Counted from the stretch's first letter, positions 54,107-61,010 are shown. The stretch: 64,000 nucleotides of DNA from an uncultured Gammaproteobacteria bacterium (GCA_964497535.1 CAZCCG010000002.1:234972-298971), one strand, 5' to 3'. Notes: generated by a model from the letters alone, not told the origin. A program made the numbers and translations.

Positions 54107-54184
54107 GGCCCCATCGTTCCCGATGGCTTACAGCCATCGAGGATCCTCGATGACAACGATCATCGGGACTAGTGGCCTAGGACA
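54107..54184 (+). other. Partial 5' duplicate of tRNA-Glu (positions 1-11 and 12-27) interrupted by a 51-nt nested-palindrome insert at the D-loop position. Likely pseudo-tRNA or structured RNA.
   Basis: GGCCCCATCGT (54107-54117) and CTAGTGGCCTAGGACA (54169-54184) are identical to the 5' 27 nt of the intact tRNA 321 nt downstream. Insert TCCCGATG...CATCGGGA contains the perfect palindrome ATCGAGGATCCTCGAT, a GGCT-tac-AGCC hairpin and a CCATCG/CGATGG pair. The whole element is additionally closed by AGGCCAC (54100-54106) / GTGGCCT (54172-54178). Confidence 0.5.
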
Positions 54185-54190
54185 AACGGA

Positions 54191-54442
54191 ATGTATACTT
54201 ATATTCTGAAAAGTCATCAGAATGGGAAATATTATATTGGTAGTACTACTGATATAAAAAATAGAGTTAAATCCCATAACAAAGGTTATTCTAAATACAC
54301 TAAAAGCAGAGGCCCATTCGATTTAATTTACAAAGAAGAATATAATACACTATCAGAGGCAAGAAAAAGAGAAAGTTATCTGAAATCACTCAAAAGTAGA
54401 AAAGCACTTGAAAAAATAATTAAAAACGGCCCCATCGTCTAG
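54191..54442 (+). CDS. GIY-YIG nuclease family protein (small, domain-only, 83 aa).
   Basis: YILKSHQNGKYYIGSTTDIKNRVKSHNKG...EARKRESYLKS matches the GIY-(x10)-YIG motif, catalytic Arg and conserved Glu. The last five codons (NGPIV-stop) are templated by nt 1-15 of the tRNA-Glu gene. Confidence 0.75.
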   Translation: MYTYILKSHQNGKYYIGSTTDIKNRVKSHNKGYSKYTKSRGPFDLIYKEEYNTLSEARKRESYLKSLKSRKALEKIIKNGPIV

Positions 54443-54500
54443 TGGCCTAGGACATCAGGTTCTCATCCTGAAAACTTGGATTCGAATTCCAATGGGGTCA
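54428..54500 (+). tRNA. tRNA-Glu (anticodon CUC).
   Basis: Manual cloverleaf: acceptor GGCCCCA/TGGGGTC (one G-U), D-arm, anticodon stem TCAGG/CCTGA with loop TTCTCAT (CTC at 54462-54464, U33, A37), variable loop AAAC, T-arm TTGGA-TTCGAAT-TCCAA, discriminator A. CCA not encoded. Strong similarity to bacterial tRNA-Glu D-arm (TCGTCTAGTGGCCTAGGAC). Confidence 0.85.
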
Positions 54501-54508
54501 CTAAAATT

Positions 54509-55296: not shown

Positions 55297-55395
55297 TACC
55301 CTATGGTAGTAAGAACTGAAGAAGAACTTGCCTCAGAATAAATTACACTCTTCCAAGCTTCCAAAGAACCCCTTATCTGGTTCCAATTCTGAATA
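55291..55395. repeat. Imperfect direct repeat copy 1 (about 100 bp).
   Basis: Shares GATTCTAATACCC ... ACTGAAGA ... CCAA-GAAC-CC--ATCTGGTTCCAATTC with 55861-55950. Confidence 0.55.
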
Positions 55396-55474
55396 CTAGC
55401 GTCACTGCAAGGCCGAAGATTCGGCCAAGATACATGAAATAATCTCAGGCAATGATCTACTCACACAATGAACG

Positions 55475-55771
55475 TCACGATTCTAGTTCCTGATCGGTAA
55501 GCCCCAGAGCTTTGCCCAAAGCGATCGAGTCAGCCAAAGTTTGCTCAGGAGTACTCTCTTCAATAGCGTTCGTATCAACACCCAGTTTCTTAGCTAATGC
55601 GATCGAGTCAGCAAGCGTTTGTTGTGCTGTTGAAGTCGGTTCTAAATCTCGAGTTGTAGGTAACCCGAGCGTCCCCTCCAATCGTCCGATGTGGTAAACC
55701 AATTGCTGCTGTGTTCGATTCAACGACTCGCCAAGCGGTTGCTCAGGAGTAGATAAAGATCCTTTTTCCAT
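55475..55771 (-). CDS. Small hydrophilic protein (98 aa) containing an internal tandem repeat. Function unknown.
   Basis: Strong SD (AAGGAGGTG) 8 nt upstream of ATG. TTGACT-17-TAATAC promoter-like element upstream. Internal repeat PEQTLADSIALAKKLGVDTNAIEEST / PEQTLADSIALGKALGLTDQELES. G+C visibly higher than neighbours. Confidence 0.6.
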   Translation of the reverse strand: MEKGSLSTPEQPLGESLNRTQQQLVYHIGRLEGTLGLPTTRDLEPTSTAQQTLADSIALAKKLGVDTNAIEESTPEQTLADSIALGKALGLTDQELES

Positions 55772-55860
55772 ACATTATTCACCTCCTTATTCCATTAATA
55801 TCATGAACCATGTTGCTCAAGTATTACATTACTGATAACTGCAAGTCAATAATTGATAAG

Positions 55861-55950
55861 ATTCTAATACCCGTACTGAAGATGAAATAGGTTCAGGTTG
55901 GATAATACTTATTGCTCCAATGAACTCCGAATCTGGTTCCAATTCGAAAG
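55861..55950. repeat. Imperfect direct repeat copy 2 (about 90 bp).
   Basis: See copy 1. Exact 13-mer GATTCTAATACCC and 15-mer ATCTGGTTCCAATTC shared. Confidence 0.55.
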
Positions 55951-56709: not shown

Positions 56710-56757
56710 TTGACTTCAGTATTATCCTCTAGTATAATCTCCTCCGTACATTGATAG
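56710..56757 (+). promoter_or_regulatory. Sigma70-like promoter A: TTGACT-17-TATAAT followed after 7 nt by the conserved 12-mer GTACATTGATAG.
   Basis: -35 at 56710-56715, -10 at 56733-56738, 12-mer at 56746-56757. Drives the four-gene plus-strand cassette. Confidence 0.6.
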
Positions 56758-56789
56758 GTGCAGAAGAAGTATCCGAAAGGGGAACGGCA

Positions 56790-57212
56790 ATGCAAAAACA
56801 CCGCTGGGATGACACCACAATTGGTACCTACTGGACATGGGAGATGCCAGAGTTAGCTCGTGAGCTTCCAATCCTGCTTCAGAAAGCAGGCCGAGTCGAG
56901 ATTCTTTCAGAACCTGACTTCCTCACGCGAGTTGTTATCAGGGTGCATCTTCATCAACCAGCAAAGGTTATCGATTGGGGGCAAAACTGGGGAGACGGCG
57001 TAGCAATCAACTCCGCCACCTATGCATGTTTTTCCCGTGGCTTCTCGGCCAACATGAAGCGACTACCTCGCGAGGGAGATACAGTCATCGAACTCGATAT
57101 CGAGCTGGAGATGAGGACGTTTAAAGAGGGACAGGAAATCACACTCGATGACATGCGTAAAGCGCTTCATGAATTCGCTGAACAGATAACCAAAACATGG
57201 TACTATCACTAG
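56790..57212 (+). CDS. Hypothetical protein (140 aa), first gene of G+C-rich cassette. Start placed at ATG with SD AAAGGGG (the track's TTG start at 56751 is less likely).
   Basis: MQKHRWDDTTIGTYWTWEMPELAREL... No recognisable motif. About 50% G+C. Confidence 0.55.
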   Translation: MQKHRWDDTTIGTYWTWEMPELARELPILLQKAGRVEILSEPDFLTRVVIRVHLHQPAKVIDWGQNWGDGVAINSATYACFSRGFSANMKRLPREGDTVIELDIELEMRTFKEGQEITLDDMRKALHEFAEQITKTWYYH

Positions 57213-57262
57213 CACTCACGCAGTTCATCACTGCAATGCTAGTAGCTCAGAAAGGGGCAACC

Positions 57263-57658
57263 ATGACTACCGATCCCCCAGTCCCTGAAGGAATGGAATG
57301 GGTACGCAGGTCAACTGCTGTTTATCGTCTGGGAATATCCGAGAGAGCGATATCCCAACGGGTAAAGACGGGAAAACTACTCAAACGTGGTGGTCCTAGA
57401 ACTGGTCAGCCTGCGGAAGTGCTAGTTCCCATCCAGATGCAAGACTCTGTTCTTCAACAGTATAGTAAAGTGCTAGAGCAGGGCATCGAATATGGCAAAC
57501 TTCTGCAACAACGCGACCATTTACTCACTCGTCTAGGAGAAACAGAACGCCGGGCGCAAGATGCAGAAGCCAAACTCAGTCAAGCAATGTCAAAGTTGGC
57601 TCAGTATGAAGTGCTTATGAGTACCATAGCTCAATTGATTCCATCGCACCTACGATGA
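57263..57658 (+). CDS. HTH DNA-binding protein (excisionase/MerR-like N-terminal helix-turn-helix plus C-terminal coiled coil), 131 aa.
   Basis: SD AAAGGGG before ATG. WVRRSTAVYRLGISERAISQRVKTGKL is a typical HTH. C-terminal heptad-rich QQRDHLLTRLGETERRAQDAEAKLSQAMSKLAQYEVL. Confidence 0.55.
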   Translation: MTTDPPVPEGMEWVRRSTAVYRLGISERAISQRVKTGKLLKRGGPRTGQPAEVLVPIQMQDSVLQQYSKVLEQGIEYGKLLQQRDHLLTRLGETERRAQDAEAKLSQAMSKLAQYEVLMSTIAQLIPSHLR

Positions 57659-57669
57659 CTATTCTACTC

Positions 57670-57700
57670 GGGCACCCTTCGGGGTGCCCTCTTTCGTTTA
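57670..57700 (+). terminator. Rho-independent terminator: GGGCACCC-TTCG-GGGTGCCC followed by TCTTTCGTTTA.
   Basis: Perfect 8-bp GC-rich stem with TTCG tetraloop and U-rich tail, 12 nt after the HTH gene stop. Confidence 0.7.
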
Positions 57701-57733
57701 TCCTTCTTCAACCTCTCAAAAGATTCAATTACC

Positions 57734-57781
57734 TTTACTTCTTCCCTACTCTTTCCTATAATGCCATCTGTACATTGATAG
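57734..57781 (+). promoter_or_regulatory. Sigma70-like promoter B: TTTACT-17-TATAAT followed after 7 nt by GTACATTGATAG (identical 12-mer and spacing as promoter A).
   Basis: -35 at 57734-57739, -10 at 57757-57762, 12-mer at 57770-57781. Confidence 0.55.
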
Positions 57782-57866
57782 CGAAAATATACCGCTCTGG
57801 CATTATCTTTATAAGTTTGCTTGTAAAAATGATGCTGGGGCGGCAGCAGAAAGTGAGGAACCCTAT

Positions 57867-58139
57867 ATGGGTCAAGGATATACACCTACCTTGGAAGGAT
57901 GGCCTGAGTGCCTGAGCACAGGAGGGAGTCGAGAAACTCTCTTACGACGGCTTGAGAGCGACAGGCAGCTTTACTGGATACGGCCACACCTGATCCAACG
58001 ATTTGGCAGTCTCGAAGCATCGCTGGACTTTATCACTACTCCCCGCAACGACCTGGATGGAAGGACGCTTTGGCAAGCGTTTGGATCGTTTCGGCCAGGA
58101 GAAGTGTTGGTAGTCCAGGATATCCTCAGGCGTCAGTAG
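57867..58139 (+). CDS. Hypothetical protein (90 aa).
   Basis: SD GAGGAA 8 nt upstream of ATG. MGQGYTPTLEGWPECLSTGG... Same strand and composition as the rest of the cassette. Confidence 0.5.
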   Translation: MGQGYTPTLEGWPECLSTGGSRETLLRRLESDRQLYWIRPHLIQRFGSLEASLDFITTPRNDLDGRTLWQAFGSFRPGEVLVVQDILRRQ

Positions 58140-58199: not shown

Positions 58200-58796
58200 A
58201 TGGCCGACGATCAGACTAAGGCACATCAATGCTCTTTGTGCAAAACACCTGAAGATCAGGTAAAACTTATAGCTTGCCCCGAAGGCAGCTACTTCTGCGC
58301 CATCTGCGCTCAAAAATGGGCAGACGCCGCGATGGATTTGATCGGCGAAGACCCAATACAGCTTACAGACGCAGATATCGACGAGATCAGTCTTCGTATG
58401 CTCGCTGGGGAATCTGGCCAACCGCTTGAACTCGATGCACTTGGTATGCCTCGAGGACTACGGATCTCTGAAGATAGCTGGAGGGAAATCAAGCAGCACG
58501 TAAACGAAGTACTAGCAAGGAGTACGCCGATGGAACCGCAGGTATGCAAGTCTTACGAAGAAGCCAATCGGGTCAAAGACCGCCACCTACGAGAGCTCGT
58601 AGTACCTTTGACACTTACCGTGGGCGTATACAGCCGCTCCCGGGAAGAGGGAGACCCCGAACAATGGGTAATCGTAGTAGGACTCCGCAGGGAACCTACA
58701 GACCAAGAGCTGCAAGATCTTCCCATGGAGCTTGAAGGCATCCCTGTGCTGTATGAAAGAGAAGGGAGATCACAAGCAGCAAAGAAATCTGTCTAA
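58200..58796 (+). CDS. Cys-rich zinc-ribbon/zinc-finger protein (198 aa), function unknown.
   Basis: SD AAGGAA before ATG. N-terminal CSLC-x11-C-x6-CAIC cluster (C11, C14, C26, C33, C36). Acidic C-terminal half. Confidence 0.55.
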   Translation: MADDQTKAHQCSLCKTPEDQVKLIACPEGSYFCAICAQKWADAAMDLIGEDPIQLTDADIDEISLRMLAGESGQPLELDALGMPRGLRISEDSWREIKQHVNEVLARSTPMEPQVCKSYEEANRVKDRHLRELVVPLTLTVGVYSRSREEGDPEQWVIVVGLRREPTDQELQDLPMELEGIPVLYEREGRSQAAKKSV

Positions 58797-58816: not shown

Positions 58817-58852
58817 GCCCCCGAGGCTTCAGCTGAGGGGGCTTTTTTTATT
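58817..58852 (+). terminator. Rho-independent terminator: GCCCCC-(14 nt loop)-GGGGGC followed by T8.
   Basis: GC stem 58817-58822 / 58837-58842 plus TTTTTTTTAT tail, 20 nt after the zinc-ribbon gene stop. Confidence 0.7.
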
Positions 58853-58877
58853 TACAGATTCAAACTATAAAGCTCTA

Positions 58878-61010
58878 CTATTGATCTGAATTTGAAACTG
58901 GAAGAGTAATGTCTTCTCCAGTTCTTGCCGTATGGCTCACTAAAACCCGAGTGGGAATACCGTCTTTCTTCATCACCATACTTCCTCCATTAGAACCGCT
59001 GAGTTTGGCATCATATTTTTGTTCTATTCCTTCAACAGCATGATATGTCGTGCTGCTATATATTTTGCTACAACATTCATCATAAAAAGTGTTTTTCAGC
59101 GCTCCACTACTGATGCTACTTGCAGGGTCATATATTCTGCTGATTGTTGTGCTCAGTTGTAATCCCGGAAATGTTTGTAGTTTTGCTTTAAGCTCCGGGG
59201 TCAGAGGAAGAAATGTAGTCCCAATTGGTACAAATGTATCGGGTATGACATTTTCAAGATATACATTTTGTAGGTATGAATTTCGTGAATCATTGGTAAT
59301 CCCCAGTATTACTTGTGCAAGTACAGAGAGCATTTCATTCTCTCTTTTCGTATCAATTTTATTGGGATTTATAGAAATGAGATACCCGTTTGTATCCTGG
59401 ACTATTTTTTGCCCTGTAGGAGAATAGAGTGTTCCTCTTTTTCCTACCTGAGAAGTATAGGTAAAAGTAGTACCGGGAGTGAATTTATGCAGTAATAGAT
59501 CCCAATCCCACACAATTTTCCATTGTCCGTTTTCATTGACCAAGTTCATTGTTTTATCTTCTGAAAATGCACCAAGGTCTTGTGTTTTATAGATGACATG
59601 AAACTGTACTGATCCGTGGTTTCCAAAAAGAGGAATGGTTCGCTTTTTTTCAGAAACGGTTATATTTTTTACAGTAGCATTGATCAGTGCATTTTGTGCA
59701 ATTTTTCTAAATTGTTCTTGTGTCAACCCATTTTTGCTTGTCTGGGAAATATCTTCTGCATAGATGTCATGGAAATATTGATGGGAAAAATTATAGTAAT
59801 AATCCTGTATCGTAAATGGCTGGGTCGTTACCAGAAGCCAAGTAGTATAAAACAATCCCCCGCATGCCACAATAACAAAAAGAACTAATCCCACAGGTCG
59901 AAGCAGATACTTTTTAAATGCCTGCGCAAAAAGTAAATAGAGGATTGGAACAAAAAGAATTGTATAGCGGACATAAAAAGGAATATTGGTATAGATAAGA
60001 AGAGTTACTAACAAGAAAACGCATATTCCTTTGAGGAAAATATCTTTCTTTCGAGTTATGAGAGTTTTAACAGCAACACCAATACCTGCTACTGTAACAA
60101 TCGGCAGAAAAATCCACCATTCCCTGATCTTCTGAAAGGCTCCAGTAACAACATCTGGAAAATATCCAATAAGAATAGCATCCCATACAGACAAACGAAA
60201 CAATTGATTCTTGCCGTTGTAGTAAACCGATGCCATGTACTTATGCAGCTTGAGATAGTCCAGGATGGTATGACCCATAGCAAAATATCGAAAGTAAGGA
60301 ATAAATACTCCAACCACAAATGTAGCTAAAAATACTATGATAAAAATAAATCTCTTTTTGTAGAAAAGATAAACCAACTCCAAACAAAGAATTACAGGAA
60401 CCAGAAGCGGCGGCTTTGTTTCTGTAAAAAATCCCAGACTCAATCCGCTGATCCCAATCCATAGATACCTTATTTTGTGATTGGTATCGGTAACTGCATA
60501 GAAAAGAAAAAGAAAATTAATAAGGAGAAAAAGAAGCTGCAACAGATCCAGAGTGGTAGTCGTAAAATGAGTATAAACAAACGGCTCAACTACCAGTAAC
60601 GTTGTAGTCATCAGAGCTATTTTTTTATTTTTTAGTAATGCTTTGGCAAAAAAATAGAATGCTACAATAGTACCTATTCCAGTCAAAAATGCGAAGTAAA
60701 TGGGATTATGCAATAGGATAATACTTATGCCGATTAAATAGATTCCAACAGGAGGTTTATTGGCATTTGTCGTTTCGATACTGTCTCCCTGCATCATGCG
60801 ATATCCAGCATAACTATAAATTCCATCATCACCGATGATGCGTTGGGACAAAGGCAATGTCCACTGAGAATGTTCCATTCTATCTTTCCAATAAGAAACG
60901 TTATACTCCTGCAAAAAAAGATATCGGTTAAAATATAGTAATTGAAGAAATTGAAGAATAATGATTGCGAGGCAAAATAAGAAGAGCCGATTTTTTGTAA
61001 TAAAAGTCAT
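58878..61010 (-). CDS. Large membrane protein (710 aa): N-terminal polytopic GT-C-like domain (GDDGIYSYAGY loop motif) plus C-terminal soluble domain of about 330 aa.
   Basis: Long ORF. About 12 TM in the first 390 aa. IGDDGIYSYAGYRMMQG after TM1 resembles the acidic first-loop motif of GT-C enzymes. Confidence 0.55.
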   Translation of the reverse strand: MTFITKNRLFLFCLAIIILQFLQLLYFNRYLFLQEYNVSYWKDRMEHSQWTLPLSQRIIGDDGIYSYAGYRMMQGDSIETTNANKPPVGIYLIGISIILLHNPIYFAFLTGIGTIVAFYFFAKALLKNKKIALMTTTLLVVEPFVYTHFTTTTLDLLQLLFLLINFLFLFYAVTDTNHKIRYLWIGISGLSLGFFTETKPPLLVPVILCLELVYLFYKKRFIFIIVFLATFVVGVFIPYFRYFAMGHTILDYLKLHKYMASVYYNGKNQLFRLSVWDAILIGYFPDVVTGAFQKIREWWIFLPIVTVAGIGVAVKTLITRKKDIFLKGICVFLLVTLLIYTNIPFYVRYTILFVPILYLLFAQAFKKYLLRPVGLVLFVIVACGGLFYTTWLLVTTQPFTIQDYYYNFSHQYFHDIYAEDISQTSKNGLTQEQFRKIAQNALINATVKNITVSEKKRTIPLFGNHGSVQFHVIYKTQDLGAFSEDKTMNLVNENGQWKIVWDWDLLLHKFTPGTTFTYTSQVGKRGTLYSPTGQKIVQDTNGYLISINPNKIDTKRENEMLSVLAQVILGITNDSRNSYLQNVYLENVIPDTFVPIGTTFLPLTPELKAKLQTFPGLQLSTTISRIYDPASSISSGALKNTFYDECCSKIYSSTTYHAVEGIEQKYDAKLSGSNGGSMVMKKDGIPTRVLVSHTARTGEDITLPVSNSDQ

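Follow-up and report, generated by a model that had tools for sequence, protein, structure and literature searches.

Two promoters of a compositionally distinct island are followed by the same 12-mer

We analyzed a 64-kb stretch of bacterial DNA (CAZCCG010000002.1:234972-298971; hereafter the window), in which the region from 56.7 to 59.0 kb is the sole large compositional anomaly (49% GC versus 36.4% overall). The region carries four open reading frames (ORFs), all on the + strand; nearly all host genes lie on the − strand. Judged by composition and orientation, this island of ~2.1 kb is foreign DNA that was acquired horizontally. It is organized as two bicistronic units (Table 1). Promoter P1 is followed by a 12-mer, GTACATTGATAG, then by ORF A, ORF B and a terminator, and promoter P2 by the same 12-mer, a 97-nucleotide (nt) leader, ORF C, ORF D and a second terminator. 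A GAAAGG-type Shine-Dalgarno sequence precedes all four ORFs, each of which has GC1 > GC2 as a signature of coding DNA. The subject of this study is the 12-mer that the two promoters have in common.

Scanning both strands of the window, we found GTACATTGATAG exactly twice, in both cases on the + strand, and no third exact copy on either strand. The sequence-only reading of this stretch had placed an exact 12-mer 7 nt after the −10 box of two promoters, and both copies and both TATAAT hexamers were located as described. In a consensus scan, P1 and P2 were the top two sigma-70-like sites across 55.0-59.5 kb. Transcription start sites prefer a purine in the favored window downstream of the −10 box. 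With a discriminator of 7 nt, the favored start purine is the opening G of the 12-mer, and standard promoter geometry therefore predicts that the 12-mer constitutes +1 to +12 of both transcripts.

Both copies also contain a TTG triplet. That in copy 1 is in frame with ORF A and was taken as the start by one gene caller, giving a product of 153 amino acids (aa), and that in copy 2 (57775) opens a 47-aa upstream ORF overlapping the start of ORF C. Both frames would begin M-I-(G/A), which is probably incidental.

Table 1. Promoters, 12-mer copies, ORFs and RNA-level features of the island, numbered from the first nucleotide of the window
Feature	Position	Strand	Description
Promoter P1	56710-56738	+	−35 TTGACT at 56710-56715, 17-nt spacer, −10 TATAAT at 56733-56738; 11/12 match to consensus
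12-mer copy 1, GTACATTGATAG	56746-56757	+	7 nt past the −10 box of P1; left compositional edge of the island
ORF A	56790-57212	+	140 aa; Shine-Dalgarno-like GAAAGGGGAAC ahead; alternative in-frame TTG start at 56751 inside the 12-mer; orphan
ORF B	57263-57658	+	131 aa (153 aa from ATG at 57197); candidate DNA-binding regulator
Intrinsic terminator of operon 1	57670-57699	+	GGGCACCC-TTCG-GGGTGCCC, then T-rich tail
Promoter P2	57734-57762	+	−35 TTTACT at 57734-57739, 17-nt spacer, −10 TATAAT at 57757-57762; 10/12 match to consensus
12-mer copy 2, GTACATTGATAG	57770-57781	+	7 nt past the −10 box of P2
Hairpin	57792-57843	+	52 nt, 23 bp including several G-U pairs; in the 5′ untranslated region (5′UTR) of operon 2, downstream of the 12-mer and ahead of the Shine-Dalgarno sequence of ORF C
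ORF C	57867-58139	+	90 aa; predicted all-helical; orphan
ORF D	58200-58796	+	198 aa; N-terminal ClpX-type C4 zinc ribbon, below the Pfam threshold
Intrinsic terminator of operon 2	58823-58855	+	At the right edge of the island's compositional anomaly
Possible degenerate third copy, CTACTATTGATCT	58875-58887	+	TAC-T-ATTGAT; overlaps the stop codon of the convergent 710-aa host gene

The 12-mer is conserved between promoters that are otherwise diverged

When the two promoters were compared in register, they agreed at 5/6 positions of the −35 box (the −35 regions read TTGACTTC and TTTACTTC), at 6/6 positions of the −10 box and at 12/12 positions of the 12-mer, versus 10/24 positions of the spacer and discriminator. 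Across the 120 nt upstream, a stretch that takes in the promoter boxes, the flanks were 31% identical in register, and across the 120 nt downstream 17.5%. When aligned locally, they scored no better than shuffled sequences, so that everything upstream of the −35 box and downstream of the 12-mer is at background, which bears out the earlier description of the flanks as unrelated. If the two promoters share ancestry, the 12 bases were kept while the other positions were randomized; if they do not, the same 12 bases were acquired twice. Either way, this pattern makes the 12-mer look like a sequence under selection.

We then asked how often such a coincidence would arise by chance. A repeated word of this length is common in the window, which contains 499 distinct directly repeated 12-mers or longer repeats. 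The sequence-only reading had expected the 12-mer about once per 16 Mb; this is the wrong null, as it fits a word specified beforehand and not a word noticed because it is repeated. Among the 121 TATAAT sites in the window, some pair would have a 12-nt run at the same offset with p ~0.1, as extrapolated from the run-length distribution. The strong promoter-like sites number 34 and make 561 pairs, in which the next-longest run at the same offset is 7 nt. Considering strong promoter-like sites only, we simulated the window 400 times with a first-order Markov model: the longest same-offset run reached at least 12 nt in 0/400 simulated windows, at least 11 nt in 0.5% and at least 10 nt in 2%, an estimate that takes no account of the placement of the two sites, which lie 1 kb from each other in the same orientation and head the two operons of a single island. 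Near-matches to the 12-mer with up to three mismatches occurred at chance frequency (66 found versus 66.5 expected). These results confirm that the shared 12-mer is non-random.

Outside the island, the collections searched contain the composite motif only at chance level

Next, the combination TATAAT-N7-GTACATTGATAG was searched for in public sequence collections. There was one match in IMG/VR, which lay in an AT-rich stretch without intergenic or promoter context. The GTDB species genomes (596 Gb) yielded 11 matches in unrelated taxa, no two of them on one contig; most lacked a −35 box, and the single match in the candidate phyla radiation (CPR) had no promoter context. The JGI metagenomes contained 14 single matches, none of which had a good −35 box. 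Such counts are near the expectation for uniform composition (~17 for the genomes), i.e. at chance level. No further copy of the 12-mer was present in the 6.6 kb of the same genome available beyond the window or in the loci of relatives. On these searches, which for the source genome itself span the window and the adjoining 6.6 kb, we regard the composite motif as private to this island. The sequence-only reading had held that a 12-mer common throughout the genome irrespective of promoter context would point to chance; what we observed in public collections was scattered matches at the chance level.

ORF B is modeled as a winged-helix protein

No island gene had a match above threshold in Pfam, PHROGs, PADLOC, NCBIfam, PDB sequences or Rfam, and the island DNA did not match any phage. 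ORF B, for which Pfam, NCBIfam and PDB sequences were all without a match, was modeled with AlphaFold2 from its single sequence at a mean pLDDT of 84. The model comprises a strand (residues 11-15), two helices (16-23 and 27-36), a β-hairpin (41-56) and a single helix of 70 residues (61-130). Foldseek comparison with the PDB returned only matches with E > 0.1, of which the excisionase (Xis) of mycobacteriophage Pukovnik gave the tightest local superposition (probability 0.97, root-mean-square deviation 1.8 Å over 42 columns); winged-helix regulators and a DNA-binding protein of phage P2 were further fold matches. The matches in BFVD were mostly proteins named 'HTH DNA-binding', 'MerR-like HTH', 'excisionase' or 'Cox' (HTH, helix-turn-helix), with E values from 0.016 to 0.2. 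The Cox protein of phage P2 belongs to the Xis/MerR-like winged-helix class and reads direct or asymmetric sites. From this model, ORF B is probably, not certainly, a winged-helix DNA-binding protein of the Xis/MerR class with an oligomerizing helix.

The other three proteins gave less information. An exhaustive HMMER search with ORF D detected domain-level remote similarity only: its N-terminus resembles a ClpX-type zinc ribbon, and its C-terminal ~85 residues resemble unannotated proteins of 90-107 aa. The genomic contexts of these remote matches were uninformative. The structure model of ORF C was of low confidence and had no fold match. A likeness of ORF C to the DUF2384 antitoxin domain, which we had considered, was supported neither by Pfam nor by this model, and we dropped it.

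The leader of operon 2 is predicted to form a hairpin

The 5′UTR of operon 2 is predicted to fold with a minimum free energy of −36.1 kcal/mol (z = −3.7 versus shuffled sequences). The hairpin that lies between the 12-mer and the Shine-Dalgarno sequence of ORF C contains G-U pairs and is thus specific to the RNA of the + strand, and since it is not followed by a T-run, it is not an intrinsic terminator. The sequence ATGATG lies within its 3′ arm. As for known structured leaders, only tRNA-Glu exceeded the Rfam gathering threshold anywhere in the window.

A candidate operator at the predicted start of both transcripts

Our tentative preference, which we hold at somewhat less than even confidence, is that the 12-mer serves both promoters as an asymmetric operator, located at +1 to +12 and bound by ORF B. 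In this scheme, the modeled ORF B, with its winged helix and long oligomerizing helix, would bind the 12-mer at P1 and at P2 and would block RNA polymerase there; we infer the binding, the repression and the start site alike. ORF B would thereby autoregulate operon 1 and co-regulate operon 2. The region from +1 to +12 is a classic position for steric repression by bacterial repressors. The 12-mer occupies a fixed position inside the RNA polymerase footprint of two promoters of one island, as an operator would, and conservation limited to the two promoter boxes and the 12-mer is the mark that selection on a recognition site of 12 bp is expected to leave. Privacy of the motif to the island is likewise expected of an operator matched to an orphan regulator. 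The winged-helix class that includes BldC (PMC5859096) and RdfS (PMC11963761) reads asymmetric or direct-repeat sites and is able to regulate transcription, and recognition of an asymmetric site by a monomeric phage repressor has been documented (PMC9283540). If ORF B belongs to this class, the main objection to an operator, namely the lack of a dyad in the 12-mer, is removed.

Several observations nevertheless weigh against this assignment. The 12-mer is neither palindromic nor internally repeated, so that it lacks the dyad symmetry or tandem half-sites that would suit an oligomeric regulator. No inverted or additional copies with up to two mismatches were present in the window, and no further half-sites were found near the 12-mers, which one would not usually expect of a protein whose long helix presumably mediates dimerization. 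The assignment of ORF B as a DNA-binding protein comes from a single-sequence model all of whose fold matches have E > 0.01. Homologous islands were not found: ORFs B and D had no homologue beyond themselves among 5.8 billion proteins, and ORFs A and C had no relatives in plasmid and viral collections. Finally, the conserved block opens at the predicted first transcribed base, and a role at the RNA level would fit this position equally well.

Such a role is unlikely in our estimate, and would consist in a shared 5′-terminal tag (5′-GUACAUUGAUAG) that is read on both mRNAs after transcription. Coincidence of the block with the predicted +1 to +12, with the opening G as the first purine, speaks for a tag, as do its asymmetry, which is typical of RNA signals, and the elaborate strand-specific hairpin in the 5′UTR of operon 2, which suggests RNA-level control within the island. 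Candidate readers, an island protein (the zinc-ribbon ORF D or ORF A), an RNase or an antisense RNA, might then control the stability or translation of both mRNAs jointly, a proposal that we consider as doubtful as the tag itself. However, the 12-mer does not take part in a common predicted leader structure, being unpaired in leader 1 and weakly paired over 4 nt in leader 2; the window contains no complementary sequence with up to two mismatches; and no RNA-binding domain or Rfam match was identified in the island. The same position would also suit an element acting on RNA polymerase during initial transcription, either by a sigma-70-dependent pause or by tuned promoter escape. Sigma-dependent pauses occur at −10-like elements in early transcribed regions, e.g. 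at lambda PR′, and a −10-like hexamer, TACATT, which matches at 4/6 positions including the key A2 and T6, occupies +2 to +7 of the 12-mer, followed by a −35-like TTGATA over +6 to +11. A pause of the lambda PR′ type also involves a Q-type antiterminator with its binding element. Yet TAnnnT is expected by chance in about one fifth of 12-nt AT-rich stretches, so that a pause element leaves the conservation of all 12 positions unexplained, and no Q-like antiterminator was recognized; we regard this explanation as very unlikely. We give similarly little credence to a 12-mer without function, be it a passive remnant of a duplicated promoter or a coincidence. The 499 repeated 12-mers in the window are in its favor, and with two elements in an isolated island there is too little material for a comparative test, but a same-offset run of at least 12 nt was absent from all 400 simulated windows. 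Moreover, 12/12 intact positions beside 10/24 in the spacer and discriminator are incompatible with neutral decay (0.42^12 ~3e-5), which makes a passive duplication remnant unlikely.

Alternatively, the 12-mer may be the core of an att-like site, with the island consisting of two tandem cassettes of ~1.0-1.1 kb (56746-57769 and 57770-~58875) that adjoin the 3′ end of the 710-aa host gene, and with ORF B, Xis-like in its predicted fold, in the role of recombination directionality factor (RDF). Several features of the island fit this quite unlikely arrangement. Copy 1 lies exactly at the left GC boundary, and at the right boundary a degenerate TAC-T-ATTGAT points the same way. At 1024 and ~1105 bp, the two units are of similar length, and a terminator closes each of them. 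The best structural match of ORF B is an excisionase, and the island, foreign by composition and orientation, is located 2.2 kb from a tRNA gene with other insertion scars. The pattern TAC.?ATTGAT occurs at only four sites in the window (53581, 56747, 57771 and 58876), three of which mark the left edge, the middle and the right edge of the island. As a third copy, CTACTATTGATCT is a weak lead: it has the same orientation, but its edit distance from the 12-mer is 4, and the pattern was found post hoc and is of marginal significance. No integrase, recombinase or transposase is encoded in or near the island, terminal inverted repeats are lacking, and three independent assemblies of the locus are identical with no sign of excision variants. 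A junction also leaves unexplained why −10 and −35 boxes precede both copies in identical register, and why unit 2 has no such promoter at its right end. Target-site duplication was rejected on similar grounds, i.e. no terminal inverted repeats, no transposase and no explanation for the promoter register. Decidedly unlikely, in our view, is a broader idea in which the 12-mer serves as a private 'address label': either an RNA tag read by an orphan island protein, or an operator that doubles as the att-like core of a two-cassette mobile module without its own recombinase, with ORF B acting both as regulator and as the directionality factor of a helper recombinase whose gene lies elsewhere.

Returning to the operator that we favor, the sequence-only reading had offered it as one of three options, and the predicted fold of ORF B supports it indirectly. 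Of the other two, a remnant of a duplicated promoter module is made unlikely by the conservation pattern, and our data neither favor nor eliminate a conserved 5′ leader or processing site.

The host locus and its neighboring insertions

Three independent assemblies from Logan agree at 100% identity over the locus, and one of them extends into the host DNA on both sides; the locus is therefore not an assembly chimera. These three contigs showed no sign of strain variation or excision variants at the island. The gene flanking the island on the right encodes a 710-aa protein, whose best homologues (~53% identity) belong to metagenome-assembled genomes of the 'Patescibacteria group' and Levybacteria. 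These homologues assign the host to the Patescibacteria (CPR). The 710-aa gene was also used to look for an empty site, but it had no relatives in the JGI metagenomes, and its best homologues at ~53% identity are not syntenic. The protein combines a PMT-like membrane domain with MecA_N and penicillin-binding protein (PBP)-dimer domains, an architecture that is conserved in the Patescibacteria homologues. The host DNA at 1-53300 and 58878-61010 is a long run of genes for glycosyltransferases, PMT-like proteins and membrane proteins, almost all on the − strand.

Two further insertions may lie to the left of the island. An ORF similar to GIY-YIG endonucleases (54191-54442; Pfam E = 3e-17) lies directly upstream of, and overlaps, the gene for tRNA-Glu(CTC) at 54428-54501. 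Sixteen nucleotides of the tRNA D-arm region, CTAGTGGCCTAGGACA, are copied exactly upstream of this ORF (54169-54184 and 54439-54454), as is the 5′ end of the tRNA, GGCCCCATCGT, from 54107. It looks as if the GIY-YIG gene had been inserted into the tRNA gene together with a replacement for its 5′ half. A hint of strain heterogeneity at this site comes from two Logan contigs that end precisely at 54429. A second small GC-rich (46-48%) insert may be present at 55360-55945. It contains a 98-aa orphan ORF on the − strand (55475-55771) with internal 78-nt repeats, which is bracketed by a 30-nt direct repeat of 87% identity (55360-55389 and 55916-55945, 556 nt apart).

Relation to known regulatory sites of mobile elements

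Among the private operators of mobile elements, the 12-mer looks most like asymmetric sites oriented to transcription, such as the operators and stoperators of Cluster A mycobacteriophages, which are recognized by repressors of the L5 gp71 type (PMC9283540). In common with these it is short (12-14 bp), non-palindromic, exact and in one orientation relative to transcription, overlaps a promoter, and would belong to the private regulator of a mobile element, for which ORF B is the candidate here. Unlike the stoperators, which number dozens per genome and block elongation as well, the island has two copies, both at predicted start sites. The Cluster A repressor is a monomer composed of an HTH and a stoperator domain, whereas ORF B is not similar to it in sequence and is predicted to combine a winged HTH with a long helix. 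Cluster A genomes are characterized by more than 20 oriented intergenic copies together with a gp71-type repressor; we found two copies in 64 kb plus 6.6 kb. With only two copies and an unrelated candidate regulator, the island is not a member of the Cluster A family.

The N-terminal domain of ORF B shares its predicted fold class with BldC (PMC5859096) and with RdfS and other RDFs (PMC11963761), which likewise act on non-palindromic sites. Proteins of this class can repress promoters and direct recombination. In contrast to the cooperative arrays of adjacent repeats used by the Xis/BldC class, the island has one 12-mer per promoter and no partner recombinase, and neither Xis nor BldC has the 70-residue helix modeled for ORF B. 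Classical MerR proteins do possess a coiled coil, but they bind a dyad within a spacer of 19-20 bp; the island site is at the predicted +1, and the spacers are 17 bp.

Shared operators of mobile-element regulons are exemplified by the KorA/KorB operators of IncP plasmids and the C-boxes of restriction-modification controllers. As in these systems, where a regulator encoded by the element coordinates its operons, an identical short sequence occupies a fixed position at several promoters of one element. Their operators are palindromic and conserved across many related elements, whereas the 12-mer is asymmetric and found in one island only. The small (~1 kb), co-oriented units with a short repeated core in a foreign array also recall integron cassettes. 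Integron arrays combine an IntI integrase and attI with attC sites that carry an inverse core and a core (RYYYAAC ... GTTRRRY). Neither an IntI integrase nor an attC imperfect palindrome or GTTRRRY core was found; instead, the repeat stands at a constant distance behind a complete promoter, the neighboring genes include no integrase, and the units end in simple terminators.

Shared operators of mobile elements are well known, and an operator at P1 and P2 would challenge no current concept; its value would be local and not general. If the operator reading is true, the island carries a compact, self-contained circuit of orphan parts: two near-consensus promoters, a 12-bp asymmetric site and a small winged-helix protein. 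To our knowledge, almost no regulator-operator pairs have been described in Patescibacteria (CPR), in which genetics is not possible. The 12-mer and ORF B would then offer a directly testable DNA-protein pair and a handle on the role of the island in its host.

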